Virus record (IMG/VR): IMGVR_UViG_2563366840_000003
Strand: one strand, 5' to 3'
DNA: 23,883 nt
Origin: a virus
Lineage: Duplodnaviria > Heunggongvirae > Uroviricota > Caudoviricetes
In this document: positions 10,999-23,883 of the stretch, piece after piece
How positions within the stretch are numbered: position 1 is the first letter of the stretch
Layout of the letters: the number at the start of each line of letters is the position of its first letter
Made by a program: the position numbers and the translations under genes
The notes under the pieces: generated by a model
What the model was told of the DNA's origin: nothing
What the model saw: the letters and a program-made list of their open reading frames with translations, nothing else
The model's database searches: none

Positions 10999-11283
10999 GT
11001 GTGTGCTGGAGGGAAGCTGCATTAAAAAAATGTGTGCTGCCGGGAAGGCTTGTCTAATTTCCTGTTTTTGATGTGCGCTGGAGGGGGACGCCCCGCAGTT
11101 TGCCCAGACTTTCCCTCCAGCACACATCTGTCCATCCGTTTTTCCCTCCAGTGCACATGTAATTCTCTGCCTTTCCCTCCAGCACACATATTTGATACCA
11201 GCGATCCCTCCACAGCACATAATTTAATGCGACTTCCCTCTATCGCACATTCTGGTCCTGCATCATCCCTCCAGCACACATCT
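10998..11283. repeat. incA copy-control iteron array (nine iterons: three direct, six inverted)
   Basis: ATGTGTGCTGGAGGGAA-type repeats at ~11000, 11030 and 11062 on the plus strand and TTCCCTCCAGCACACAT-type at ~11112, 11143, 11175, 11206, 11236 and 11266 on the minus strand; the ORF-track ORFs here are repeat artefacts. Confidence 0.8.
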
Positions 11284-11391
11284 AATAGCCACATCGCCAT
11301 TTCTTTACGTGCAATAATTGACGCACGAATCAAAAAAAGTTGCACGTAGCAGAATCAAACGTACAATTCACTCATACGAAATGATAAGGAG

Positions 11392-12603
11392 ATGATGATG
11401 AAACGCGATTACGGCGGTGTCGGCACCATAGCTCTTCGTGCAAGCGCATTACTTAAGGCCATGAGTCAGGATATTGAAGATCAGCGCAAAGAGTTCAATC
11501 AGACCGAGTATTATCAGACGTTCACTCGTAACGCTGTGGCAAAGTTGCCGAAGCTGAGCCGCCGTATTGTGGAGCAGGCCATCAAAGAGATGGAAGATGA
11601 TGGGTACCAGTTCAACAAGAAACAGGTCGGTAACGTTGAACAGTACGCGCTGACCATCCAGAACGTCATTGATATCTATGCCCACCGTAAGATCCCCAAA
11701 TATCGCGACATTCACAAATCGCCTTACGTTATTTTTGTCGTAAACCTGAAGGGTGGCGTATCCAAAACGGTTTCCACAGTCACGTTGGCGCACGCTCTGC
11801 GTGTGCATCAGGATTTACTGCGTCACGATCTGCGCATTCTGGTAATTGACCTTGACCCTCAGGCATCCAGCACAATGTTCCTCGACCATACTCACAGTAT
11901 TGGTTCCATCCTGGAAACCGCCGCGCAGGCGATGCTGAACGACCTGGACGCGGAGACGCTACGCAAAGAGGTGATTCGTCCGACCATCGTTCCTGGCGTA
12001 GACGTGATTCCAGCCTCTATCGACGATGGCTTTGTTGCCAGCCAATGGAAAGAGCTGGTTGAAGAGCATCTTCCCGGACAAAATCAGTACGAAATCCTTC
12101 GACGCAATATCATTGATCGTGTTGCGGATGATTATGACTTTATCTTTATTGATACCGGTCCACACCTGGATCCGTTCCTGCTCAACGGTCTGGCGGCCAG
12201 CGATTTGCTGCTTACCCCTACCCCACCAGCCCAGGTTGACTTCCACTCAACACTGAAATATCTCACCCGTCTGCCAGAAATGCTGGAGCAACTGGAGGAG
12301 GAAGGCGTAGAACCGCGTTTGAGCGCCAGCATTGGTTTTATGTCGAAGATGACCGGCAAGCGCGATCACGAGACATCACACAGCCTTGCGCGTGAGGTTT
12401 ACGCCAGCAACATTCTGGACTCTTCTCTGCCTCGTCTGGATGGCTTTGAGCGATGCGGCGAGTCTTTCGACACCGTAATCAGTGCCAACCCGCAATCGTA
12501 TCCAGGCAGTGCAGAGGCGCTGAAGAAGGCACGAACCGAGGCCGAGCGTTTCACTAAGGCTGTGTTTGATCGAATTGAGTTTGTTAGGGGTGAGGCGGCA
12601 TGA
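11392..12603 (+). CDS. parA: type Ia partition ATPase ParA (P1/P7 family, divergent)
   Basis: Deviant Walker A NLKGGVSKTVSTV, DLRILVIDLDPQ, and C-terminal LPRLDGFERCGESFDTVISANP shared with P1 ParA as recalled; the N-terminal HTH region differs; AAGGAG before three consecutive ATGs. Confidence 0.9.
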   Translation: MMMKRDYGGVGTIALRASALLKAMSQDIEDQRKEFNQTEYYQTFTRNAVAKLPKLSRRIVEQAIKEMEDDGYQFNKKQVGNVEQYALTIQNVIDIYAHRKIPKYRDIHKSPYVIFVVNLKGGVSKTVSTVTLAHALRVHQDLLRHDLRILVIDLDPQASSTMFLDHTHSIGSILETAAQAMLNDLDAETLRKEVIRPTIVPGVDVIPASIDDGFVASQWKELVEEHLPGQNQYEILRRNIIDRVADDYDFIFIDTGPHLDPFLLNGLAASDLLLTPTPPAQVDFHSTLKYLTRLPEMLEQLEEEGVEPRLSASIGFMSKMTGKRDHETSHSLAREVYASNILDSSLPRLDGFERCGESFDTVISANPQSYPGSAEALKKARTEAERFTKAVFDRIEFVRGEAA

Positions 12604-13565
12604 AAAAAATAGTTTCCCGTGGACGAGTGCTGGGCAAGAATAGCTCCGAGTTTGCTCGCATGCTTGAAGGCAGTGAAGGCACCAAAACCTTTACCCTAAA
12701 ATCTGGCCGCCAGGCTAAATTCTTGCTTACCGTCGTGCTGAGTGGTGAGATTGAGTCGCGCACGTTCGTTGACCCGGCAGTTAACGGCCGCGATCAGTCT
12801 CTGCTCACCCCTGAGTCGGTAAGCGATATTTCCCGCACCATTAAATTGCAACAGTTCTTCCCGGCTATCGGTCGTATGGTTGGGGAGCGCATTGAGGTAT
12901 TGGACGGATCGCGTCGCCGCGCTGCGTGTATCTTCAATGAAACGAAATTTGAGATTCTGGTGACGAAAGATGAGATCAGCCTGGCGGATGCCCGCCAGCT
13001 GGCCATTGATATCCAGACAGCCCGCGAACACACTCTGCGCGAGCTGGGTAAACGCTTCGAGGTTATGTACGGTAAGAATATGACCAAAGAAGAGATCGCC
13101 CGAGCTGAGAACATCTCAAAGGCAAAAGTGACGCGAGCTTTCCAGGCTGCCGCGGTGCCGGATGAGATGATTGCTGTCTTCCCCGTAGCCAGCGATCTCG
13201 CCCTTCCAGATTACCAGTTACTGCTCCAGATCGCCGAGGATGCTAACGCTAAAAGCGTGCCGATTGAAGAGCTGGTTGATACGGTGCGCGAACGAATTGC
13301 AGAGACTGAGGGCGCGAAAGAGGATAAAGCGAAGATACTGGCTATCTTCAAAGCGGAAAGCAAAAGCCTGAAGCCCGCGCCGGTTAAATCTGTGGTGGTT
13401 GAGAAGCTGCGAGACTTCTCTGACCGTCGCCAATATGCCCGAAAGAAGTCCGATCCGAAAAAACGGGTTGTCGCCTACGAGTTCTCCAGACTCCCGTCTG
13501 AAGTGCAAACTGAAATTGACGAAGCAATAAAAAAAATCATTGGGAAAATGTCTGCTGGGGAATAA
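12600..13565 (+). CDS. parB: centromere-binding protein ParB (P1/P7 family, divergent)
   Basis: ATGA overlap with parA; shares FYPAIG, ILDGSRRRA and AKVTRA-type blocks with P1 ParB as recalled, but is divergent elsewhere. Confidence 0.85.
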   Translation: MKKIVSRGRVLGKNSSEFARMLEGSEGTKTFTLKSGRQAKFLLTVVLSGEIESRTFVDPAVNGRDQSLLTPESVSDISRTIKLQQFFPAIGRMVGERIEVLDGSRRRAACIFNETKFEILVTKDEISLADARQLAIDIQTAREHTLRELGKRFEVMYGKNMTKEEIARAENISKAKVTRAFQAAAVPDEMIAVFPVASDLALPDYQLLLQIAEDANAKSVPIEELVDTVRERIAETEGAKEDKAKILAIFKAESKSLKPAPVKSVVVEKLRDFSDRRQYARKKSDPKKRVVAYEFSRLPSEVQTEIDEAIKKIIGKMSAGE

Positions 13566-13619
13566 TCCCGCTGGTGGGAGGCGGCTTTAGCCCCCTCCCC
13601 TGTCTAAAATGTCCCGCGC

Positions 13620-13695
13620 CTATTTCATGTATAAATATATGATATATATAGATATTAATGGAAAATTTCAGACTGAAATTCCCACGATTTCACGC
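13620..13695. promoter_or_regulatory. candidate parS centromere
   Basis: ParB box-A-like heptamers ATTTCAT (13623), ATTTCAG (13665), inverted TGAAAT (13674) and ATTTCAC (13688), a box-B-like hexamer TCCCAC (13680), and an AT-rich putative IHF region between; flanked by C-rich runs CCCCCTCCCC (13591-13600) and CCCCCCTCCCCC (13709-13720). Confidence 0.5.
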
Positions 13696-13752
13696 CTGTT
13701 TTACTTGCCCCCCTCCCCCGCACAAAAAATTTAAAAAATTACTTTTAGCGAG

Positions 13753-13780
13753 AAAGTCAACAAGTGACTTTCAATAAAAT
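13753..13780 (+). promoter_or_regulatory. candidate late-type promoter upstream of the morphogenesis block
   Basis: Inverted repeat AAAGTCA-ACAA-GTGACTTT centred about 22 bp upstream of a TAAAAT -10-like hexamer, with no -35; placement fits activator-dependent late promoters. Confidence 0.25.
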
Positions 13781-13810
13781 CTCTTCCGAAAAGGGATTCA
13801 CACAAGTGCC

Positions 13811-15538
13811 TTGTGTTTAAGGAAGAGTAAATTGAGTAACTTACGCGAATACCAGAATCGTATTGCAGATATCGCAAAACGCTCTAAAGCTGTGCTTGGC
13901 TGGGCAAGCACTGCGCAGTTCGGTACTGATAACCAATTCATTAAAGATGATGCCGCGCGTGCCGCATCTATCCTTGAAGCTGCACGTAAAGACCCGGTTT
14001 TTGCGGGTATCTCTGATAATGCCACCGCTCAAATCGCTACAGCGTGGGCAAGTGCACTGGCTGACTACGCCGCAGCACATAAATCTATGCCGCGTCCGGA
14101 AATTCTGGCCTCCTGCCACCAGACGCTGGAAAACTGCCTGATTGAGTCCACCCGCAATAGCATGGATGCCACTAATAAAGCGATGCTGGAATCCGTCGCA
14201 GCAGAGATGATGAGCGTTTCTGACGGTGTTATGCGTCTGCCTTTATTCCTCGCGATGATCCTGCCTGTTCAGTTGGGGGCAGCTACCGCTGATGCGTGTA
14301 CCTTCATTCCGGTTACGCGTGACCAGTCCGACATCTATGAAGTCTTTAACGTGGCAGGTTCCTCTTTTGGTTCTTATGCTGCTGGTGATGTTCTGGACAT
14401 GCAATCCGTCGGTGTGTACAGCCAGTTACGCCGCCGCTATGTGCTGGTGGCAAGCTCCGATGGCACCAGCAAAACCGCAACCTTCAAGATGGAAGACTTC
14501 GAAGGCCAGAATGTACCAATCCGAAAAGGTCGCACTAATATCTACGTTAACCGTATTAAGTCTGTTGTTGATAACGGTTCCGGCAGCCTACTTCACTCGT
14601 TTACTAATGCTGCTGGTGAGCAAATCACTGTTACCTGCTCTCTGAACTACAACATTGGTCAGATTGCCCTGTCGTTCTCCAAAGCGCCGGATAAAGGCAC
14701 TGAGATCGCAATTGAGACGGAAATCAATATTGAAGCCGCTCCTGAGCTGATCCCGCTGATCAACCACGAAATGAAGAAATACACCCTGTTCCCAAGCCAG
14801 TTCGTTATCGCGGCTGAGCACACGGTACAGGCGGCGTATGAAGCACAGCGTGAATTTGGTCTGGACCTGGGTTCCCTACAGTTCCGCACCCTGAAGGAAT
14901 ACCTGTCTCATGAACAGGATATGCTGCGTCTTCGCATCATGATCTGGCGTACTCTTGCGACCGACACCTTTGACATCGCTCTGCCGGTTAACCAGTCCTT
15001 TGATGTATGGGCAACCATCATTCGTGGCAAATTCCAGACTGTATATCGCGACATTATTGAGCGCGTTAAATCTTCTGGTGCGATGGGGATGTTTGCTGGT
15101 GCTGATGCAGCATCTTTCTTCAAACAGTTGCCGAAGGATTTCTTCCAGCCAGCCGAAGACTATATCCAGACTCCGTATGTTCACTACATCGGTACCCTGT
15201 TCGGTAACGTGAAAGTGTACGAAGTACCTGCTGGTATTTGTAAGAACTTAACGACAGAGAACATTCAGTTCAGCTCGATGGATGTGCTGTGCTACGTCCG
15301 TGATGAAAATCCGGGTAAAGCAGGCTTCGTGACTGGTGATGCTGTCCCGGCCATCCCGTTCCAGCATCCGACCACTCCGGCGCTGGTCAACCGTACCACG
15401 CTGTGGGGTTCGGCTATCAACGATATGCACCCACGCAACGGCGCTGATTACTTCACTCGTGTAACGCTGACAATGGCCAAAAAAGGCGGGCTTAACTTCA
15501 TTAGCGGCGACACGATTGATGCCGGTGACTCTGAGTAA
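13811..15538 (+). CDS. large structural protein, candidate major head protein (P1 gene 23 position)
   Basis: First and largest gene after parS, strong codon bias; assignment is by size and position only. A TTG at 13832 preceded by AAGGAAGAG may be the true start. Confidence 0.4.
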   Translation: MCLRKSKLSNLREYQNRIADIAKRSKAVLGWASTAQFGTDNQFIKDDAARAASILEAARKDPVFAGISDNATAQIATAWASALADYAAAHKSMPRPEILASCHQTLENCLIESTRNSMDATNKAMLESVAAEMMSVSDGVMRLPLFLAMILPVQLGAATADACTFIPVTRDQSDIYEVFNVAGSSFGSYAAGDVLDMQSVGVYSQLRRRYVLVASSDGTSKTATFKMEDFEGQNVPIRKGRTNIYVNRIKSVVDNGSGSLLHSFTNAAGEQITVTCSLNYNIGQIALSFSKAPDKGTEIAIETEINIEAAPELIPLINHEMKKYTLFPSQFVIAAEHTVQAAYEAQREFGLDLGSLQFRTLKEYLSHEQDMLRLRIMIWRTLATDTFDIALPVNQSFDVWATIIRGKFQTVYRDIIERVKSSGAMGMFAGADAASFFKQLPKDFFQPAEDYIQTPYVHYIGTLFGNVKVYEVPAGICKNLTTENIQFSSMDVLCYVRDENPGKAGFVTGDAVPAIPFQHPTTPALVNRTTLWGSAINDMHPRNGADYFTRVTLTMAKKGGLNFISGDTIDAGDSE

Positions 15539-15598
15539 TCAGGGGTAGTTCTCCGTTTAACATAGCGCCCCCGTGCGGGGCGCATAACAGGGAAAGTT

Positions 15599-17188
15599 AT
15601 GTCTCAATATTCAATTCAACAGTCATTAGGTAATGCATCCGGCGTCGCGGTTAGCCCGATCAATGCCGATGCGACGTTATCTACCGGTGTTGCATTAAAT
15701 AGCAGCTTATGGGCTGGTATTGGCGTATTTGCGCGTGGCAAGCCGTTTACTGTTCTTGCGGTTACTGAGTCCAATTACGAAGATGTTCTCGGCGAACCGC
15801 TGAAGCCGTCTTCCGGCTCACAGTTCGAACCAATTCGCCATGTATACGAAGCTATTCAGCAAACGTCTGGTTATGTTGTTCGCGCTGTTCCGGATGATGC
15901 GAAGTTCCCGATTATTATGTTCGATGAATCAGGCGAACCGGCTTACAGTGCGTTGCCATACGGTTCTGAAATTGAACTTGATAGTGGCGAAGCCTTTGCT
16001 ATCTACGTTGATGATGGTGATCCGTGTATTTCACCTACCCGTGAGTTAACCATCGAAACGGCAACAGCGGACAGCGCGGGTAATGAACGCTTCCTCTTAA
16101 AACTGACCCAGACGACTTCGCTCGGCGTGGTAACGACCCTGGAGACACACACTGTGTCTTTGGCGGAAGAAGCGAAAGATGACATGGGCCGCTTGTGTTA
16201 TCTGCCTACGGCTCTGGAAGCCCGTTCTAAATATCTGCGCGCGGTTGTTAATGAAGAGCTGATTTCGACAGCGAAAGTAACAAACAAAAAATCGTTGGCG
16301 TTCACTGGCGGTACCAACGGCGATCAGTCGAAAATCTCAACCGCTGCGTACCTGCGTGCGGTTAAAGTGCTGAATAATGCGCCGTACATGTACACCGCTG
16401 TTCTTGGCCTGGGCTGCTATGACAATGCGGCTATCACCGCATTAGGTAAAATCTGTGCAGATCGCCTGATTGATGGCTTCTTTGATGTCAAACCGACATT
16501 GACGTACACGGAAGCGATCTCTGCTGTTGAAGATACCGGTTTACTTGGTACCGATTATGTAAGCTGTGCTGTCTATCACTACCCGTTCTCCTGCAAAGAC
16601 AAATGGACCCAATCCCGTGTGGTCTTTGGTCTGTCTGGCGTGGCGTATGCGGCGAAAGCTCGTGGCGTCAAGAAAAACTCTGATGTCGGCGGTTGGCATT
16701 ACTCACCGGCTGGTGAAGAACGTGCCGTCATTGCTCGTGCGTCAATTCAACCGCTGTATCCGGAAGATACCCCGGACGAAGAAGCAATGGTCAAGGGCCG
16801 TCTCAATAAAGTATCTGTTGGCACCTCTGGCCAGATGATCATCGACGATGCTTTAACTTGCTGCACGCAGGATAACTATCTGCACTTCCAGCACGTCCCA
16901 TCCCTGATGAATGCAATCAGCCGTTTCTTTGTCCAGTTAGCCCGACAGATGAAGCATAGCCCGGACGGTATTACTGCGGCTGGCCTGACTAAAGGGATGA
17001 CCAAACTTTTAGATCGCTTTGTCGCCTCCGGCGCTCTGGTGGCTCCTCGTGATCCTGATGCTGACGGTACAGAACCGTATGTGCTGAAAGTTACGCAGGC
17101 GGAATTCGATAAATGGGAAGTAGTCTGGGCCTGCTGCCCGACTGGCGTAGCCCGTCGTATCCAGGGCGTACCGCTGCTTATTAAGTAA
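15599..17188 (+). CDS. structural protein, candidate tail sheath (P1 gene 22 position)
   Basis: 529-aa ORF with RBS AGGGAAAG; assignment by size and synteny only. Confidence 0.35.
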   Translation: MSQYSIQQSLGNASGVAVSPINADATLSTGVALNSSLWAGIGVFARGKPFTVLAVTESNYEDVLGEPLKPSSGSQFEPIRHVYEAIQQTSGYVVRAVPDDAKFPIIMFDESGEPAYSALPYGSEIELDSGEAFAIYVDDGDPCISPTRELTIETATADSAGNERFLLKLTQTTSLGVVTTLETHTVSLAEEAKDDMGRLCYLPTALEARSKYLRAVVNEELISTAKVTNKKSLAFTGGTNGDQSKISTAAYLRAVKVLNNAPYMYTAVLGLGCYDNAAITALGKICADRLIDGFFDVKPTLTYTEAISAVEDTGLLGTDYVSCAVYHYPFSCKDKWTQSRVVFGLSGVAYAAKARGVKKNSDVGGWHYSPAGEERAVIARASIQPLYPEDTPDEEAMVKGRLNKVSVGTSGQMIIDDALTCCTQDNYLHFQHVPSLMNAISRFFVQLARQMKHSPDGITAAGLTKGMTKLLDRFVASGALVAPRDPDADGTEPYVLKVTQAEFDKWEVVWACCPTGVARRIQGVPLLIK

Positions 17189-17197
17189 GGGAATACA

Positions 17198-18013
17198 ATG
17201 AGCAAAAACTTTTTTCAATCCGGGGCATTTTTGGGGAATGGACTGTCTCGTTTCGCTTTGAACTCTGATCCTGTGCAGCTGATGGAGTCTGCCCGAGCAA
17301 GCGCTGAACCGCCAACAGATCCGGTTATTAATAATAATCCGGAACCGGCGGCACAGACTAACGATAACGTTCCATCTGCCCAGGCTCCTGAGCAAATCCT
17401 GGAAGGGAAAGACGGTAAAGAATGGACCGTCGAACAGGCGCACCAGATGATTCTGGAAGCTGCAAATCGAAGTGCTATGCAAAATGCGTTGAGTGATGCG
17501 GCCGACGCCGTTTTCGCCTGGGCTGATAGCGGTGATCTGACTTTCGACTCCCTTGATGGTTTCGTTCAGGCTATCGCTGGTATCTCTGATGACGACGACT
17601 CCGAAGTTACAGAAGAACAGGACGATGCCTATAACGAAGCATGGGCAAATGTTGCTGACTTCCTCGCAGCATGCGGTGTAGATGATGACCTGATCGAAGC
17701 ACTGGCTGACGATGAAGACGACGACGCAGCTGCTGATGTTGGTGCCTCTATCGCTGGTTTAGATAGCGACGACCGCGACGAACTGGAAGCGGCGTTTGTT
17801 GTTGCTGGCACTTCTGATGAAATGCTGACTGAAGCATTTAAGAAGGTTGTTCGTAACGGTGAGATCAAACTCATCCGTAAACGCCTGCGTAAAAAACGTC
17901 TGACTGCGGCTCAAAAATCGGCGCTGAAAAAAGCGCGTCGAAAAGCCCAGACCGGCGCGGCAAAACTTGCCCGCAAAAAGTCAATGAAACTGCGCCGTAA
18001 GCGCCTTGGCTAA
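17198..18013 (+). CDS. acidic protein with a polybasic C-terminal tail
   Basis: Residues ~100-200 are D/E-rich (DDDDSEVTEEQDD, DDEDDDAAAD); the last ~50 aa are K/R-rich (KLIRKRLRKKRL...ARKKSMKLRRKRLG). Confidence 0.5.
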   Translation: MSKNFFQSGAFLGNGLSRFALNSDPVQLMESARASAEPPTDPVINNNPEPAAQTNDNVPSAQAPEQILEGKDGKEWTVEQAHQMILEAANRSAMQNALSDAADAVFAWADSGDLTFDSLDGFVQAIAGISDDDDSEVTEEQDDAYNEAWANVADFLAACGVDDDLIEALADDEDDDAAADVGASIAGLDSDDRDELEAAFVVAGTSDEMLTEAFKKVVRNGEIKLIRKRLRKKRLTAAQKSALKKARRKAQTGAAKLARKKSMKLRRKRLG

Positions 18014-18048
18014 AGGAGGAGGCCGGAGAACTCCGGCCTTTAACTTGA

Positions 18049-18630
18049 ATGGCACCTATTCCTTATGGGGTTTACAGCCAGGCTGACGGTGTATCGCCAT
18101 ATCTGAAAGTTACTTTAACGAACTCTCAGTACCAGGTTACCGGATATATCAGCCAGGGAGCGGCAATGAACATGGCCCAGAATTGGGAAGCGCCGTTTAC
18201 CGGTATGTCCATGGGATCTGTTGCTGGTGCCTTCAGTGGTTTTGCGCAGGTTGGTACTGAAACAACGTCGGTTGCCCGTTGGAACAGCTTAATGGTTTGG
18301 GAAGGGGGAACACCGCCGACTTTCACGCTGCCAGTAACTTTCATCGCTTTGTTTGACCCATTCACGGAGGTTTCAGGAGCTATCGCCGCATTGTCAGCGA
18401 TGATTAGCCCGGAACTTAAAGATGCCAGTATTGGTGGTCGAATCCCGGAGCGTGTGACGCTAAACATTGGTCGCCGGATCAACATCATTGATGTCGCTAT
18501 CCAGGACATAAGTTTCGATCTCGATGCGCCCAGGGACAGCAATGGACATTTCCTGAAAAACACCGTCAACCTCCAGTTGACCGGTTCTTCGATATATAAC
18601 AGCTCCGATATTGTTCGGGCGTTCCAGTAA
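18049..18630 (+). CDS. hypothetical structural/morphogenesis protein (193 aa)
   Basis: Co-oriented and tightly packed in the morphogenesis block; the AGGAGGAGG RBS-like element is separated from the ATG by an 18-nt hairpin (18018-18035). Confidence 0.45.
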   Translation: MAPIPYGVYSQADGVSPYLKVTLTNSQYQVTGYISQGAAMNMAQNWEAPFTGMSMGSVAGAFSGFAQVGTETTSVARWNSLMVWEGGTPPTFTLPVTFIALFDPFTEVSGAIAALSAMISPELKDASIGGRIPERVTLNIGRRINIIDVAIQDISFDLDAPRDSNGHFLKNTVNLQLTGSSIYNSSDIVRAFQ

Positions 18631-18641
18631 AAGGATTTTAT

Positions 18642-19151
18642 ATGGGGCACAATAACACTAAGGGAAACCGTAAATTTATTAAGGGCCGCTATACTGCCAA
18701 CGCGGCCAAAGGCGAACGACTGGTATCTTCTGAATTCCAGCTCACTTTTGCAGGCCATGAAGATATCAGCGTACTGGTTCGCACGTCGCAAATTCCTGAA
18801 ATGACCCGCGAGGATGTGGAGGACTATGGTCCGAATGGTGTGAAGTTCAACCAGCACGGTCCAATTCGAAACTCTGGGGAAATCCAGGTCCAGTGCGTGG
18901 AGACTATCGAAGGCGATATTCTTCAGTTCATTAAAGATCGCATTGCGGCGAAGGACTATGTTGATATCACGATGGCTGCTACCCCTGAATCCAAATCTTC
19001 CGGGGTTAACGCTGTGACAAAAGCTGCTACAACAATTGAAATGTTGGACTGCAAAATCTACAGTGATGCAATCGACTTTAGTACCGAAGATGTGACTGCC
19101 GCTGTGCGCCCGTCACTTCGTATCGTCTACAACTGGATTGAGTGGGATTAA
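18642..19151 (+). CDS. hypothetical structural/morphogenesis protein (169 aa), possibly tube or baseplate component
   Basis: AAGGA RBS, last gene before a strong terminator; size and beta-rich composition are compatible with a tail-tube-like protein but not diagnostic. Confidence 0.4.
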   Translation: MGHNNTKGNRKFIKGRYTANAAKGERLVSSEFQLTFAGHEDISVLVRTSQIPEMTREDVEDYGPNGVKFNQHGPIRNSGEIQVQCVETIEGDILQFIKDRIAAKDYVDITMAATPESKSSGVNAVTKAATTIEMLDCKIYSDAIDFSTEDVTAAVRPSLRIVYNWIEWD

Positions 19152-19170
19152 GAGTCATCCCTTGTATTTT

Positions 19171-19196
19171 AAAGCTCCTTCGGGAGCTTTTTTATT
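19171..19196. terminator. intrinsic terminator between convergent units
   Basis: AGCTCC-TTCG-GGAGCT hairpin followed by TTTTTTATTT on the plus strand and preceded by AAA, so it can also serve the minus-strand hok transcript. Confidence 0.7.
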
Positions 19197-19267
19197 TGGA
19201 GAGGAAAGGGTGCATTGAGGATACCTGACACACGAAGAGTGGCGAGGATCTCTCCCCGCCAGGTCTC

Positions 19268-19423
19268 TTACCTTTCAGATTCGTAGGCTGTGAAGACAGT
19301 GACCTCCGTCTGGCCGGTTCGGATTCGTACCTCGCAGAGGTCTTTCCTCGTTACCAGTGCCGTCACAATGACGGTTAAACAGATGACGATCAGAGCGATT
19401 AATATCGCTTTTTGCTGCTTCAT
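19268..19423 (-). CDS. hok: Hok/Gef-family type I toxin (51 aa)
   Basis: Codon-by-codon reading gives MKQQKAILIALIVICLTVIVTALVTRKDLCEVRIRTGQTEVTVFTAYESER, almost identical to E. coli HokD/RelF-type toxins as recalled. Below the ORF-track size cutoff. Confidence 0.85.
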   Translation of the reverse strand: MKQQKAILIALIVICLTVIVTALVTRKDLCEVRIRTGQTEVTVFTAYESER

Positions 19424-19481
19424 AGCCTGCTTCTCCTTGACCTTTTGGTCGGTAAGAGGCTAATCTACGTATGCTAAGCAT
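19275..19481 (-). CDS. mok: mok-like overlapping reading frame
   Basis: 68-aa ORF starting 58 nt upstream of hok and overlapping it out of frame, the arrangement known from hok/sok loci. Confidence 0.45.
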   Translation of the reverse strand: MLSIRRLASYRPKGQGEAGYEAAKSDINRSDRHLFNRHCDGTGNEERPLRGTNPNRPDGGHCLHSLRI

Positions 19482-19530
19482 AGATATTGCCTCAGATTAA
19501 TGTTAAGCGTCTTGCAGGACGCGTAATGTT
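19437..19530 (+). ncRNA. sok: candidate sok-like antisense RNA and promoter (boundaries approximate)
   Basis: Plus-strand TTGACC at 19437-19442 and a TAATCT-like -10 about 18 bp downstream would direct a transcript antisense to the mok start region; hairpin GCGTC-TTGCAG-GACGC at 19508-19523. Not independently verifiable here. Confidence 0.25.
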
Positions 19531-19757
19531 ATCTGGGGCTTTCTTCTATCTGCTTTTCGGGTAATGCCTGAAGCAGATAGCCTCAAGCACCCGCAATGAT
19601 TGTATCAATGTCTGGCTTTTTTTCTATAGAAATCACCGGGAAGGGTGAATATCCACATCAGAAGAAATGTTGCAGCAAACATGATCCCTAATGGCCAGAC
19701 CGCGCCAAAGAAAATCCATACTGAAAACGCCAGGTGACTCCAGATTAGAGCAATCTA

Positions 19758-20603
19758 TCACCCTCTGAATCCCGCCGGTATACCCCATTGTTCGTTATCT
19801 TTATTTTTGGCTAAAACCGCATTAAGAGCTTCGTTTACCATCATGCAATGCGGCAGATTATCGAAGTTTGATACCCCGCCAATATCAGGAGAACGCTTGT
19901 TCTTCAGGTAAGCATATTTCCGCGCTGCCGCCTCTACTTTCTGCTTGAACTCATGTTTTTGAGCGCGTTTTTTGGATAACCGCAGATTGTCAGCCTTTGC
20001 TTTTGCCTCAGCGATCCATGAAGTCAATTTTTTGAGTCTGCTCGTTCCGGCACCGCCGGAAACTGATCTTTTTGTTTTTTTAACTTGTGACTTCTTATTC
20101 TTTATTGCCACGTCATCCTGACAGGGGGAGGGGGTATCATTTTGACATGGGGGTGTGGATAAAAAATTAAATAAAGCCAATGTCTTAGCGAGAACAGCTT
20201 TAACCTTGGTTGCCGCTGAAGAGATCTTTAATTTGCTTTCAATCAGCGCATTTTTGGCTTGTTGTGCGAAGGCCAAAAAGGATGGTGTAAACCGGTACAG
20301 GTTAGCGCGACGTTCACGGTGATCGCCGATAACAATCTCTACAGACAGGATTCCTTTGTTTACAGCTTCACGGAATGCACGAACGACGGTTGATTGGCTA
20401 TAACCAGTTTCTGCCGCGATCAGGCGGTGAGGCTTGTGAATGAAGTATTCACTGGTTGTTGCCGCTAGATTTGCACATTGCGACAGGATATGCCCGGCGC
20501 TACGGGATAGACCGGAGTGTGTTACAAAGCAGGCCAATTCATAGCCAGAAAAAGTAAAATCGCTCATCGTTATACAGCTCAGGAAAGTGACTTTAGCCAG
20601 CAT
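19758..20603 (-). CDS. repL: RepL-type replication protein (P1 lytic replicon)
   Basis: 281-aa ORF immediately downstream of the kilA-like gene on the same strand with no intergenic RBS-rich spacer; recognised as P1 RepL-like from memory. The start could instead be the in-frame ATG 12 codons downstream. Confidence 0.6.
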   Translation of the reverse strand: MLAKVTFLSCITMSDFTFSGYELACFVTHSGLSRSAGHILSQCANLAATTSEYFIHKPHRLIAAETGYSQSTVVRAFREAVNKGILSVEIVIGDHRERRANLYRFTPSFLAFAQQAKNALIESKLKISSAATKVKAVLAKTLALFNFLSTPPCQNDTPSPCQDDVAIKNKKSQVKKTKRSVSGGAGTSRLKKLTSWIAEAKAKADNLRLSKKRAQKHEFKQKVEAAARKYAYLKNKRSPDIGGVSNFDNLPHCMMVNEALNAVLAKNKDNEQWGIPAGFRG

Positions 20604-20632
20604 TACAATGCTGGTGGTTCTTACTACGTCTG

Positions 20633-21433
20633 TTAGCGCGTTGCCGCGACAGGTACCAGCACACCAGCATCAAGCAATCGCTTCATCAGCCACTGCTGAC
20701 CTTTGCCGGTTATACGAGTCGTGAAAGAAATCCTGCTTCCATTGCTTGTATCGATCACGGTTTCTTTAAGGGTGAAATACCCACGGGATATGTATTCTTG
20801 TTTGGGGACGTTCCTGCGTTCACCGGTTGCGATCAGAATTCCGTTATCACGCAACCAGGTGAAGAGATAGTTTTGGCCCAGACCGAGCACTTTGGCATAG
20901 TTGCCGATTAGAACCCCGCTGGCGGTAGCAACGCGTTCGGCGAATTCGACTTTAGGTGCATCCATAAGCATTTTTTGCTCCAGCCGTTGCTTTTGCTCTG
21001 CCAGGTCGGCAGCCAAACGGAGAGCTTCAGGGAGACTCTGCGGAATAGCAGGTTGTAATCTTCCGGCTCGATAGTCGATAAATGTCTGGTTTACCTTCAG
21101 CCGAAACGCGGGAGAAATCCAGCCTGCGTACTCCACAGCGAGCAATTCATGGGCAAAAGTGCCGCCGCCACGGCCTTCGAACGAAACTATGCAATTCTGC
21201 ATAGTTTCTTTTTCAAGCTCTTCGATGAGCTGTTTGGCTGACAGCGTTCTTAGCCATTGAGCTGGCGCTTTATGGGCACCGAGTCCGCTCGCTCTGTGTA
21301 GAGCATTAAGGTTGTAACGGCCAGCGCGGTCGGTCGTAATTTCAACACCACAAATAACAGGCAGAGTGGTTGAAGGATCGACATTTTGATGAAGGTTTGA
21401 TATATTCATATCCGCATTGAATGTTTGTTGCAT
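20633..21433 (-). CDS. kilA: KilA-N domain protein with antirepressor-type C-terminal domain
   Basis: 266 aa; its C-terminal ~130 aa (IPQSLPEALRLAADLAEQK...ITGKGQQWLMKRLLDAGVL) are clearly paralogous to the C-terminus of the upstream 347-aa gene; preceded by a C1-type operator. Confidence 0.65.
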   Translation of the reverse strand: MQQTFNADMNISNLHQNVDPSTTLPVICGVEITTDRAGRYNLNALHRASGLGAHKAPAQWLRTLSAKQLIEELEKETMQNCIVSFEGRGGGTFAHELLAVEYAGWISPAFRLKVNQTFIDYRAGRLQPAIPQSLPEALRLAADLAEQKQRLEQKMLMDAPKVEFAERVATASGVLIGNYAKVLGLGQNYLFTWLRDNGILIATGERRNVPKQEYISRGYFTLKETVIDTSNGSRISFTTRITGKGQQWLMKRLLDAGVLVPVAATR

Positions 21434-21483
21434 TTTTTCTCCAAATTTGCATCAACCTTCAATCACCAGCTCGAAATGGTGAT

Positions 21484-21519
21484 TCTTTGCACTTAGAAAA
21501 CGAAATTTATTAGAGCAAA
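21484..21519 (-). promoter_or_regulatory. C1-type operator (21503-21519) overlapping the -35 of the kilA-repL promoter
   Basis: Minus strand reads TTTGCTCTAATAAATTT, 16/17 to consensus; TTGCTC as -35, 17-nt spacer, TAAGTG at the -10 position. Confidence 0.55.
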
Positions 21520-21561
21520 TTTTTCTGACTCGATCCAGATCGGGTTGGTCGATCTGCTCAG

Positions 21562-21596
21562 AAACCTGCCAGTTTGCTGGCAGGTTTTTTCTTTTG
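21562..21596 (+). terminator. hairpin with T-run just beyond the ant stop
   Basis: AAACCTGCCAG-TTTG-CTGGCAGGTTT followed by TTTTTCTTTT on the plus strand; on the minus strand the hairpin is preceded by an A-run and followed by only TTT, so its role for the ant transcript is uncertain. Confidence 0.45.
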
Positions 21597-22640
21597 TTAA
21601 CCTATTGCTACTGGTTTTAACAAACCAGCATCAAGTAGCTTGCGAGTTAACCACTGCTGGCCTTTACCCGTTAATTGGGGCGTCAGCCGTATCTGGTAGC
21701 CATTTTCATCATCCAGCACCACTTCTTTCACCGTGAAATACCCGGCGTTAATGTACTGCTGGCGCGGTACGTTTTTGCGCGCACCAAAAGCCATGAGAAT
21801 GCCGTTCTGGCGCAACCATGAGAAAAGGGCGTTTTGCTTAAGTCCAACGACCTTTGCAAAGTTCCCGATCAGGATTCCATTAGCCACTGATACCCGGTCG
21901 GCAAAATCGACTTTAGGGGCTGCGGCCACCAGCTGTTGTTCCAGCTGCAATTTCTGTTCTGCCAACTCGGCAGCCAGGCGTAGGGCTTCTGGTAATGTTT
22001 GGGGGATCGATGGGGTAGGGGAGTTTGCCTGCTGCAATTCTTCCAGTTTGTCGATCAGCGAACGGCGGACCGCTTTCGATTCGCGCGCGGCGACTCGCAG
22101 GGCTTGTTTGTAGGTCATGGTTATGACAACCATAGGCGTACCGCCACCTGGCGGCACGGTTGCACTTTTTGTGTAACCGTCCTCACCTTCTAATTCGTCG
22201 AGTATTTTTTCGATGAATTTGTTGTTCCGAACCTCTGGTTCCCCACATAACTTACGCGCTTCATTGACCATCTTTAACAGTGTCAGGCTGTCGATTGTGT
22301 CTCCGGTGGTGGGGATGACATTCACGGCTGGTGCTGGCGTTGCTGAAGCAACAGGTGCTGGTTTTTTAACATTCAAATTATTACTGGTCATTCTATGTGC
22401 CTCCTTTCTCATTTCTGCTGCCACCGTTGCGTAACGTAGACGTCCTTGTTCAATCAAATAATCCCTGATCTCGGCTATCAGTAGCCTGTTGATCACAGCC
22501 TTATCTGTTCGGGTATAAAAACGCCTGGTTATCATGAAATAGTTGGCAATTGCGCCGGGGATCTCCCGTGTCGGTATACAGGCAGTATGCAGGGCGATCG
22601 CTTCGGCTATGTCATTACGGGTGACGAGAGGTTTTTTCAT
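21597..22640 (-). CDS. ant: phage antirepressor (Ant-like) with KilA-type C-terminal domain
   Basis: 347 aa; the C-terminal domain is shared with the kilA product; the start codon overlaps the stop of a 73-codon upstream ORF (ATGA), as in icd-ant operons. Confidence 0.65.
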   Translation of the reverse strand: MKKPLVTRNDIAEAIALHTACIPTREIPGAIANYFMITRRFYTRTDKAVINRLLIAEIRDYLIEQGRLRYATVAAEMRKEAHRMTSNNLNVKKPAPVASATPAPAVNVIPTTGDTIDSLTLLKMVNEARKLCGEPEVRNNKFIEKILDELEGEDGYTKSATVPPGGGTPMVVITMTYKQALRVAARESKAVRRSLIDKLEELQQANSPTPSIPQTLPEALRLAAELAEQKLQLEQQLVAAAPKVDFADRVSVANGILIGNFAKVVGLKQNALFSWLRQNGILMAFGARKNVPRQQYINAGYFTVKEVVLDDENGYQIRLTPQLTGKGQQWLTRKLLDAGLLKPVAIG

Positions 22641-22858
22641 AAACCCCCCTGAACGTCGGCAGAGAAGGGGAGGCTCCAGTAACTAAGTGAATTGCGCGAG
22701 TTAGTTGAAAAACGGGCAGTAAAAATGCAGGGGCCATCAGGCAATTGAGAGCGTGCTTCGTCTTCAGTTGCTGCGATAACGAAGTGATAGTGGTGTTTTT
22801 TACAGGAATAGAAACGCCAGATGAATTCTGGGCGTGCGCAAGGATTGGCATTAACCAT
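22637..22858 (-). CDS. icd: Icd-like small protein (73 aa) translationally coupled to ant
   Basis: 73 codons, the length I recall for P1 Icd; TGA overlaps the ant ATG; the 22615-22851 ORF in another frame is rejected. Confidence 0.45.
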   Translation of the reverse strand: MVNANPCARPEFIWRFYSCKKHHYHFVIAATEDEARSQLPDGPCIFTARFSTNSRNSLSYWSLPFSADVQGGL

Positions 22859-23149
22859 AGTTACGGCCTCACAATCAGGTTTAACAACCTGCTACCCGCT
22901 GCTAAACAGGTGGCAGGACGTGACGGGGTTAGCAGACTGGCGATTGTGAAACCAGCAGGCCGAAGCCTCCCCATCACGCCCCACCATAATTTGGGCGTAA
23001 CGCGGTTTTACGGACACAAAAATACCGCAATATCGGATATCTGCGGCTGTCCGCACAATCATTCAGGCTGCTAAACCCGGTCGCAGAATTTGCTACGACG
23101 GCGGAACTATAAGCCTGAACGATTAAAAGGTCAATATGATGCGAAAAGA

Positions 23150-23189
23150 TAGCATTCGTGACTTAAAAATACAAATTTATTAGAGCATT
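23150..23189 (-). promoter_or_regulatory. C1-type operator (23173-23189) overlapping the -35 of the promoter for the icd-ant leader
   Basis: Minus strand reads AATGCTCTAATAAATTT, 16/17 to consensus; 17-nt spacer, TAAGTC at the -10 position. Confidence 0.5.
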
Positions 23190-23285
23190 ATCTGCCTAAT
23201 AAATACACAATTGGATCTAATAACCTCTTTTTTTTAAAGGCGAAAATATGTACCCTAAATGGGTTATAAGGCAGGTGAGGTTATA

Positions 23286-23417
23286 ATGAGAAAACTATTA
23301 CTATCGTTATTATTTATGGCTGGGACTGTTAATGCAGCATCAAGCGTAAAGGAGATTTGTACCGATTATACGAAATACCTTTGGCAAGTTTACGCCTTTG
23401 CGATCAATGACTATTAA
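23286..23417 (+). CDS. small secreted peptide (43-aa precursor)
   Basis: GGTGAGG RBS then ATG; MRKLLLSLLFMAGTVNA reads as a signal peptide ending in A-x-A, followed by a 26-aa mature part with one Cys. Below the ORF-track cutoff. Confidence 0.3.
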   Translation: MRKLLLSLLFMAGTVNAASSVKEICTDYTKYLWQVYAFAINDY

Positions 23418-23438
23418 TCCATGCGTAGGAGTGGATTT

Positions 23439-23606
23439 ATGCTGATTCGTTTGTTTTTAGTGCTTTCCTTTTTAACATTTAATGTTTTTGCTGATGAAGT
23501 TGACTTTTCGAAGGTAGATTGTAATTCAGTGGAAACAAGAAAAGCTCTTATTGAAGAATATAACGAAATATTATCGTCATATGGGGTAATGACTCCAACT
23601 TATTGA
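23439..23606 (+). pseudogene. small secreted protein gene whose 3' end is replaced by IS1 sequence
   Basis: AGGAG then ATG at 23439; MLIRLFLVLSFLTFNVFA signal peptide and a Cys-containing mature part; the last 7 codons and the stop come from the IS1 terminal repeat beginning at 23585. Confidence 0.35.
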
Positions 23607-23883
23607 TAGTGTTTTATGTTCAGATAATGCCCGATGACTTTGTCATGCTGCTCCACCGATTTTGAGAACGACAGCGACTTCCGTCCCAGCCGTGCCAGGT
23701 GCTGCCTCAGATTCAGGTTATGCCGCTCAATTCGCTGCGTATATCGCTTGCTGATTACGTGCAGCTTTCCCTTCAGGCGGGATTCATACAGCGGCCAGCC
23801 ATCCGTCATCCATATCACCACGTCAAAGGGTGACAGCAGGCTCATAAGACGCCCCAGCGTCGCCATAGTGCGTTCACCGAATA
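23585..23883 (-). mobile_element. insB: IS1 insertion sequence, right end with 3' part of insB; continues beyond the window
   Basis: GGTAATGACTCCAACTTATTGATAGTGT is the IS1 terminal inverted repeat; minus-strand translation ...[62 protein letters not shown]...HYLNIKHYQ matches the InsB C-terminus. Confidence 0.95.

Follow-up and report, generated by a model that had tools for sequence, protein, structure and literature searches.

The sim region of the window

The window, the whole stretch of 23,883 nt that was analysed, belongs to a P1-like phage-plasmid. Positions 22904-23584 are 96.3% identical to P1 across c4, Op51, simA, and simB, and the rest shows a P1-like backbone with icd, a 347-aa ant, kilA, and repL on the (-) strand and parA and parB on the (+) strand. 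In the P1 annotation (NC_005856), the region reads, in order, c4 antisense RNA, the c4 promoters, Oc4 (formerly Op51), the predicted promoter PsimA, simA (gp043), simB (gp042), simC (gp041), LPsit, and pmgC. An earlier description of the window from its letters alone (the sequence-only reading) had reported two adjacent short ORFs with signal peptides. Both lie where it had put them, and their signal peptides have been judged by composition. By comparison with P1, these ORFs are simA and simB, which open the annotated simABC superimmunity (superinfection-exclusion) operon. They occupy the same position by Oc4/Op51, opposite c4-icd-ant, and the DNA is 96% identical to the P1 operon, but in the window IS1 interrupts simB after codon 49, and simC lies outside the window and is possibly absent. 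The GC content of the sim region is 33%, compared with 49% for the window. The features of the region are as follows.

22906-22991, (-) strand: C4 RNA (Rfam)
23060-23112, (-) strand: a1/b1 target element of C4 (Rfam)
23106-23134: promoter-like site, at the position of the P1 c4 promoter
23173-23189, (-) strand: C1 repressor operator Oc4 (formerly Op51), AATGCTCTAATAAATTT, one mismatch to the consensus; aligns with P1 Oc4/Op51
23195-23221, (+) strand: predicted sigma-70 promoter PsimA at the homologous position; coordinates transferred from the P1 annotation
23286-23417, (+) strand: simA, from ORF and translation; 48 of 52 residues match P1 SimA
23439-23584, (+) strand: simB', the native 5' part (codons 1-49 of 105), from the ORF; intact SimB recovered from NZ_CP138405 and P1
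23576-23584, no strand assigned: 9-bp target copy GTCATATGG abutting the IS1 end; present once in intact simB and twice in NZ_CP034659
23585-23883, (-) strand: IS1 (IS1A type), first 299 of 768 bp, entered via the insB-proximal (right-hand) inverted repeat
23600-23866, (-) strand: 3' part of insB, 88 codons, with the stop codon at 23600-23602

SimA, a probable remnant

The simA ORF starts at the ATG at 23286, behind GGTGAGG, and stops at 23415-23417. Its product, MRKLLLSLLFMAGTVNA followed by ASSVKEICTDYTKYLWQVYAFAINDY, is 43 aa long (52 aa from the upstream ATG at 23259, the start used in the P1 annotation) and is made up of a signal peptide and a 26-aa tail. By composition, the signal peptide follows the pattern MRK-LLLSLLFMAGT-VNA/A, with a basic N-terminus, a hydrophobic core, and the cleavage motif VNA/A. 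SimA matches phrog_3933 at positions 1-41 only, of 213. In NZ_CP069885, the simA position is taken by a 215-aa protein whose first ~38 residues (MRKLLLPLLFMAGTVNAASSVKEICTDYTKYLGHVYGFAV...) match P1 SimA almost exactly, and in both NZ_CP069885 and NZ_CP051361 the match to the window ends at 23425, directly 3' of simA. Because SimA matches only these ~38 N-terminal residues of a much longer protein at the same locus, the P1-type simA is probably the 5' remnant of a longer, displaced secreted-protein gene, the comparison suggesting the direction of change.

SimB, a conserved family cut short in the window

The simB ORF starts at the ATG at 23439, behind AGGAG; the P1 annotation uses the in-frame ATG at 23421. 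The product in the window, MLIRLFLVLSFLTFNVFA followed by DEVDFSKVDCNSVETRKALIEEYNEILSSYG, has an 18-aa signal peptide (by composition, M-LIRLFLVLSFLTFN-VFA/D) and 31 mature residues beginning with DEVDF. Native simB ends at 23584, after which the ORF continues for six codons of IS1 (VMTPTY) and stops at 23604-23606. The sequence-only reading had stated that the second ORF enters the IS1 repeat at 23585 and loses its native C-terminus, and had proposed a comparison with relatives lacking the IS1. Both points hold, and the intact gene could be recovered from two relatives read past the junction point, NZ_CP138405 (99.8% identical to window positions 20380-23584) and P1. In these, the simB product has 105 aa (111 from the upstream ATG), and simC and pmgC come next. 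Between the intact SimB of the relatives and that of P1, 2 of 111 residues differ. In many other P1-like plasmids, identity to the window is 100% as far as base 23584.

Intact SimB matches phrog_14329 over its full length (E 2.5e-70). A word-indexed protein search found only near-identical SimA and SimB sequences, and the wider SimB family is seen only with an exhaustive HMMER search. This family has ~25 representatives at 50% clustering, mostly of 100-120 aa and with 32-60% identity from end to end. A hydrophobic N-terminus is present in 18/18 aligned members, and C28, R34, C70, and S92 are invariant in the alignment. The AlphaFold model built from the family alignment has a mean pLDDT of 90.3, with low pLDDT at residues 1-20, and predicts a disordered signal region, a helix at 31-48, and a four-stranded antiparallel sheet at 52-103. 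A Foldseek search of the PDB with SimB gave no match at E<=0.001. The best matches were a designed binder, sialostatin L2, fetuin-B, and adhiron (E 0.018-0.3, TM 0.4-0.56), and a cystatin-like or NTF2-like fold may be taken as a lead only. No Pfam family was found for SimA or SimB, the only matches being sub-threshold ones to TcpS for SimB and to tRNA_anti-like for SimC.

The sequence-only reading had described two tandem small signal-peptide genes, and a tandem pair of like genes is not upheld. SimB belongs to a conserved family of ~105 aa, SimA is a probable remnant, and the two fall into different PHROGs with no detectable similarity, so that a paralogous relationship was rejected.

The SimB of the window keeps residues 1-49, with the signal peptide, the helix, C28, and R34, and loses C70, S92, and all of the strands. 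Because the whole beta-sheet and one of the two invariant cysteines are gone, the truncated protein should be inactive and probably unable to fold. Judging from the alignment and the model, simB' would be a family member by descent and not by function. This is not the only damaged copy. In another E. coli assembly, GCA_019660525.1, a second, independent IS1 insertion lies ~41 bp upstream in simB; a protein whose N-terminus is read out from the opposite end of IS1 first revealed it, and the DNA bore it out. Other SimB variants in the databases are frameshifted or recombinant. From these sequences, simB is a repeatedly damaged accessory gene; the P1 annotation gives it a "putative accessory function". 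IS1 favours AT-rich targets.

The IS1 end and the corA composite transposon

IS1 starts exactly at 23585 with GGTAATGACTCCAACTTATTGATAG, and the end of the window cuts the element after 299 bp. The terminal inverted repeat GGTAATGACTCCAACTTATTGATAGTG can be read at 23585-23611, with no difference from the ends of IS1A copies annotated elsewhere. The window copy shares with IS1 (IS1A, 768 bp) the terminal sequence and the insB 3' region, only 299 bp of the element being within the window. Many records have IS1 copies that match these last 299 bases at 99.3-100% identity. The match is 299/299 with the left arm of a composite element in pSSE-ATCC-43845 and with the copy that occupies this junction in NZ_CP061756, whose annotation calls it an IS1A transposase with programmed frameshift. 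A terminator-like hairpin at 23582-23597 was dismissed as meaningless; it is the IS1 terminal repeat, and the hairpin count is no better than in shuffled sequence.

Among the complete records searched, only NZ_CP061756 and NZ_CP034659 have the exact junction of the window. In NZ_CP034659, the junction leads into a 768-bp IS1 on the (-) strand, then a 1,706-bp segment from the E. coli chromosome, and an IS1 on the (+) strand; together the three form a unit of 3,242 bp. The cargo, which matches chromosomes at 97-99.8% identity, comprises corA, ysgD, and the 5' ~96 codons of yigE; the corA-flanking sequence joined to IS1 base 768 reads GAAAATAAAATAGAGAG... The sequence GTCATATGG stands before the first IS1 and again directly after the second, where the rest of simB, simC, and pmgC follow. 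This right junction of the composite with simB reads TTGGAGTCATTACC joined to GTCATATGGAATAACAG (right-junction sequence TTGGAGTCATTACCGTCATATGGAATAAC). In the intact simB of P1 and of NZ_CP138405, GTCATATGG occurs once, and when the unit and one repeat are removed in silico from NZ_CP034659, the resulting SimB is identical to that of NZ_CP138405. The sequence-only reading had proposed to look for an 8-9 bp duplication at the other end of the IS1, outside the window, and in NZ_CP034659 these 9 bp are present, beyond the second IS1.

The same IS1-corA-ysgD-'yigE-IS1 arrangement recurs at other sites: in pSSE-ATCC-43845 (IncHI2) the 9 bp on either side are GCCGACGGC, and in pSD134209-1 (IncHI1B) they are CAAATTTAA. 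R27 and many Salmonella plasmids of ~200-244 kb also have the corA segment with its left IS1 arm attached, and corA has been mentioned, without further treatment, as a variable gene of R27-like IncHI1 plasmids (bioRxiv 10.1101/334409). Since the 9-bp duplications differ at the three sites, the corA composite moves as a unit. By these flanking sequences, it is a genuine composite transposon which has moved at least three times; no name for the IS1-corA-IS1 unit was found. It resembles Tn9 and Tn1681 in that the DNA between two IS1 copies, a stretch of chromosome, is moved together with them, and a 9-bp duplication marks the target. Tn9 is IS1-cat-IS1 with direct arms, and Tn1681 is IS1-STa toxin-IS1 with inverted arms, as in the corA unit. 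Unlike these, the corA composite carries a 1,706-bp piece of the E. coli chromosome and no resistance or toxin gene.

The window IS1 can be compared with the arms of the composite at a single-base marker. It has a T at IS1 position 65, counted from the insB-proximal end, which would mark a sub-lineage common to the left arms in NZ_CP061756, NZ_CP034659, pSSE-ATCC-43845, and NZ_CP061751; this T is absent from every right arm examined. Based on the identical junction, the 99.98% flanking identity described below, and this one marker base, the window IS1 is a probable arm of the corA composite.

A simpler structure would be a lone 768-bp IS1 in simB, with the rest of simB and simC just beyond it, the corA composite of the relatives being separate or later. 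The window does show one IS1 end only, IS1 alone makes 9-bp duplications, as is well established, and an independent, lone-looking IS1 end lies 41 bp away in another strain. Against this, corA follows the IS1 in both complete records with the exact junction (2/2), the duplication flanks the whole 3,242-bp unit, and the position-65 marker fits the left arm of the composite. The inverted arms also matter here. A route from a lone IS1 to the observed structure, in which an IS1-corA circle integrates by homology into the IS1 already there, was considered and rejected, because such integration cannot explain a simB structure with inverted arms. We regard the lone IS1 as quite unlikely. The sequence-only reading was right that an IS1 end lies in simB, but the single IS1 insertion that it had described is an arm of the corA composite in both complete relatives that share the junction.

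It has also been considered that the junction is an assembly artefact, the contig being misjoined to, or ending in, a repeated IS1. The window and the four matching IMG/VR contigs all stop inside IS1, which is typical of short-read assemblies. However, two complete records of circular plasmids contain the identical junction, which is also seen in four independent samples, and one of the complete records has the matching 9-bp duplication at the far end. The complete plasmid records effectively refute an artefact, and we give it next to no credence.

Relatives carrying the junction and the role of IS26

The closest relative, NZ_CP061756, is 99.98% identical to the window over 11066-23883 (12.8 kb). 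In this plasmid, IS1-corA-ysgD-'yigE is followed by only 92 bp of the right IS1, which is cut by IS26, and nowhere in its 116 kb does the plasmid have the simB 3' half, simC, pmgC, or tub. Tail genes are missing too, and the loss on this side is put down to a later deletion by IS26. Further acquisitions of the plasmid are mrk fimbriae, ars, and a heat-resistance locus. The window keeps repA beside parA, which in NZ_CP061756 are split by IS26, and therefore the window is not the NZ_CP061756 plasmid. Four IMG/VR contigs (samples 3300045988, 3300029653, 3300029212, and 2660238499), 99.6-99.96% identical to the window, also end inside the same IS1. The IMG/VR scan for the right-hand junction (IS1 joined to GTCATATGGAATAAC) gave 0 matches, and a scan of one genome per species for the left junction likewise gave 0 matches.

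The junction in the window may by now be a scar, in which IS26 has deleted or inverted the right side (the right IS1 arm, the simB 3' part, simC, pmgC, tub, and the tail genes) and left a defective phage-plasmid. This account shares its origin with the composite transposition favoured here and differs on the present structure. The truncated right arm and the missing genes of NZ_CP061756 speak for it, as do the IMG/VR counts, with the left junction in four contigs and the right junction in none, which suggests that the right side has been lost or rearranged in most carriers. On the other hand, the repA/parA arrangement of the window is not that of NZ_CP061756, NZ_CP034659 retains the right junction and simC, and the absence from IMG/VR may stem from assembly breaks in repeats. 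The chances that the window now carries such a scar are about even. These observations suggest that the word "insertion" describes the origin of the simB junction and not necessarily its present structure.

As we read the shared junction, one ancestral transposition of the composite into simB would have founded a circulating lineage of which the window is a member, and in at least some members the right side would since have been deleted. The sequence-only reading had also suggested that the IS1 provides portable homology for cointegration with other replicons. This is reasonable in general, but the breakpoints seen beside the locus are those of IS26 and not of IS1 homology.

The control region and immunity

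The sim ORFs on the (+) strand run divergently from c4-icd-ant on the (-) strand, with Op51 between them. From this layout, the sim genes share a control region with the immunity promoter and not its transcript. The window has 5 matches to the C1 operator consensus with one mismatch, compared with 0.16 expected. A simple promoter scan did not independently report the PsimA position. The c4 RNA is the P7 allele (identical to P7) and not the P1 allele, and the match of P7 to the window ends at 23187, just inside the operator. By these comparisons, the window element is a mosaic of P7 immI and P1 sim.

The sequence-only reading had put the IS1 about 400 bp from the C1 operator at 23173-23189, and the distance to Op51, by which name the operator aligns with P1, is indeed 396 bp. 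The further suggestion that the IS1 affects the immunity promoter is unsupported. Such an effect would come from outgoing transcription, or from a change in local DNA structure, acting on the Op51-controlled promoters. The insAB genes lie on the same strand as c4-icd-ant and point toward c4, and IS elements in general can create outward transcription. The C1 operator, the promoter-like site at 23106-23134, the a1/b1 element, and the c4 RNA are nonetheless all intact in the window, and read-through from IS1 must traverse 400 bp of antisense simB and simA. Moreover, in the established immI model, C4 shares a transcript with its targets, so that extra read-through would raise the repressor RNA and the target together. 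An altered control of immunity is therefore very unlikely.

A variable slot for exported proteins

The DNA between Op51 and LPsit varies among relatives of the window. In P7, two different exported proteins fill the slot, upf50.5 (a lipoprotein) and upf50.0 (DUF5384), which are unrelated to the sim proteins. In NZ_CP069885, the slot holds two secreted proteins of 215 aa and 158 aa, and the SimA-like N-terminus of the 215-aa protein is its only likeness to sim. All of these cargoes (sim, P7, and NZ_CP069885) lie between Op(c4) and LPsit/pmgC and encode exported proteins. We infer that the Op51-LPsit slot holds interchangeable cassettes of envelope proteins.

SimC, in the work of Kliem and Dreiseikelmann from 1989 and of Maillou and Dreiseikelmann from 1990, is reportedly a periplasmic, processed protein that blocks DNA entry. 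A passage in PMC8546580, which cites Devlin 1982 and Kliem and Dreiseikelmann 1989, describes Sim as possibly stopping DNA injection by superinfecting phage. The simABC genes form one of eight highly variable, low-GC regions in P1-like phage-plasmids (PMC9603915), and in a genome-wide CRISPRi screen the sim genes were non-essential for P1 growth (PMC10695390).

Probable consequences of the simB::composite allele

Taken as a whole, the window very probably contains the start of simABC of a P1-like phage-plasmid in which simB has been disrupted, most likely by a single transposition of the 3,242-bp corA composite. In the proposed sequence of events, the composite, with inverted IS1 arms around corA, ysgD, and the yigE fragment, would have transposed once into the AT-rich simB, duplicating GTCATATGG and leaving an IS1 end after codon 49. 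The simA and simB' sequences are presumably still transcribed, with transcription running into IS1, and simB would be a null allele. In the P1 annotation, no promoter is shown for simC, which overlaps the end of simB. In the window lineage, simC would lie either behind a polar insert of >3 kb, away from the sim promoters, or be deleted as in NZ_CP061756. Where simC survives, its expression would come at most from weak read-through out of the right IS1 arm, an arm oriented toward the gene.

Sim-mediated exclusion is thus probably reduced or lost in the simB::composite allele. C1/C4 immunity, lytic growth, and maintenance should be unaffected by the insertion, lytic growth because the sim genes are non-essential. 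As an event, this is the usual kind of inactivation by insertion: the gene is accessory and non-essential, and the region is already known to vary. A bolder proposal is that the simB::IS1-corA allele, by combining the loss of Sim with the gain of an extra Mg/Co/Ni transporter, was an early selected step from phage-plasmid to cargo plasmid and, separately, that SimB is a periplasmic cystatin-like partner which SimC needs for exclusion; we consider this improbable. For a selected lineage of this kind, the carriers counted are two complete plasmids plus four contigs from metagenomes or isolates.

The P1 sim operon, IS1, and IS1 composite transposons are already known as kinds. What is added here is the naming of the genes, the recovery of the intact allele and the 9-bp duplication, the corA composite, and the probable status of simA as a remnant. 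Annotation pipelines call simA and simB "hypothetical" or miss them altogether, and both can now be named. The IS1 at the contig end is the probable arm of a repeatedly mobile IS1-corA-IS1 unit, which would explain why assemblies of the simB::composite lineage break at this place. The junction sequence can be used as a marker of the lineage. For the P1-like phage-plasmids, the low-GC sim slot offers one more case of a landing site for mobile DNA.

Mosaic structure of the immunity and sim regions

The P7 allele of the c4 antisense RNA is shared exactly by the window, while the P1 c4 differs at five positions. Over positions 22900-23187 the window is 100% identical to P7, and the sim module adjoining this stretch is of the P1 type. 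The P7-identical sequence with a P1-type sim alongside makes the element a P7-immI / P1-sim mosaic, with its breakpoint at the C1 operator (23187/23188). A second mosaic breakpoint in the window lies at ~23425. At the simA locus, other P1-like plasmids encode a 215-aa secreted protein (phrog_3933), of which only the first ~38 residues have a counterpart in SimA.

22909-22985, c4 RNA, P7 allele by identity
L011 (plasmid NZ_CP069885) 1975-2622, gene of the 215-aa phrog_3933 protein, same locus as simA; window counterpart 23286-23425, simA through to the second breakpoint

Including the operator at 23173-23189, five matches to the C1 operator are observed in the window against 0.16 expected by chance. 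The others are:

4075-4102, overlapping inverted pair
7608-7624, single site
21503-21519, single site that corresponds to Op53 and lies upstream of kilA

In the relative L002, the annotation places a hok-type type I toxin gene at 389-544, directly past repL. Placed by homology, its position in the window would be ~19268-19423.

Left end of the window

All the best P1-like plasmid matches to the window begin at position 1502, and therefore the arrangement of 1-1501 is not collinear with those plasmids. This segment holds a tail-fibre fragment and an invertase and adjoins the tRNA/TerB-like (tci) region at ~1502. The three tRNA genes are a P1-type tRNA cluster, with the anticodons CAT (called Met, but annotated as tRNA-Ile in a relative), TGT (Thr), and GTT (Asn).

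281-796, minus, tail-fibre fragment; contains a phage tail-collar domain
842-1426, plus, Cin-like serine invertase
1760-1835, minus, tRNA gene
3267-3342, minus, tRNA gene
3345-3420, minus, tRNA gene

Related plasmids and simB alleles

The nearest complete relative, NZ_CP061756.1, is a decayed P1-like plasmid from which simC is missing, as are pmgC and tub, the tail genes next to it. It carries a fimbrial operon, mrkABCDF, flanked by IS1, together with arsRDABC and a heat-resistance locus whose genes include clpK, hsp20-GI and yfdX. Restriction-modification genes are also present, two type I systems among them, and IS26 occurs in several copies.

The IS1-corA-ysgD-'yigE-IS1 unit occurs at three different sites, each time between 9-bp duplications, and the corA segment of the unit is widespread in IncHI plasmids (compared records: pSSE-ATCC-43845, pSD134209-1, and R27). 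No transposon name for the unit was found in the literature searched.

Some other simB alleles are also damaged or recombinant. In GCA_019660525.1 (contig JAIFPW010000026.1, 1-120), an independent IS1 has inserted in simB ~41 bp upstream of the site in the window; the other end of this IS1 faces the 3' half of simB, and the downstream simC-pmgC-tub genes are intact. The 143-aa protein P0009, from a 1,335-bp ENA metagenome contig, has the precomputed Pfam annotation TcpS (PF17456). Its residues 1-44 are SimB, comprising the signal peptide and the start of the helix, and are followed by unrelated sequence. P0009 is another recombinant at the simB locus.
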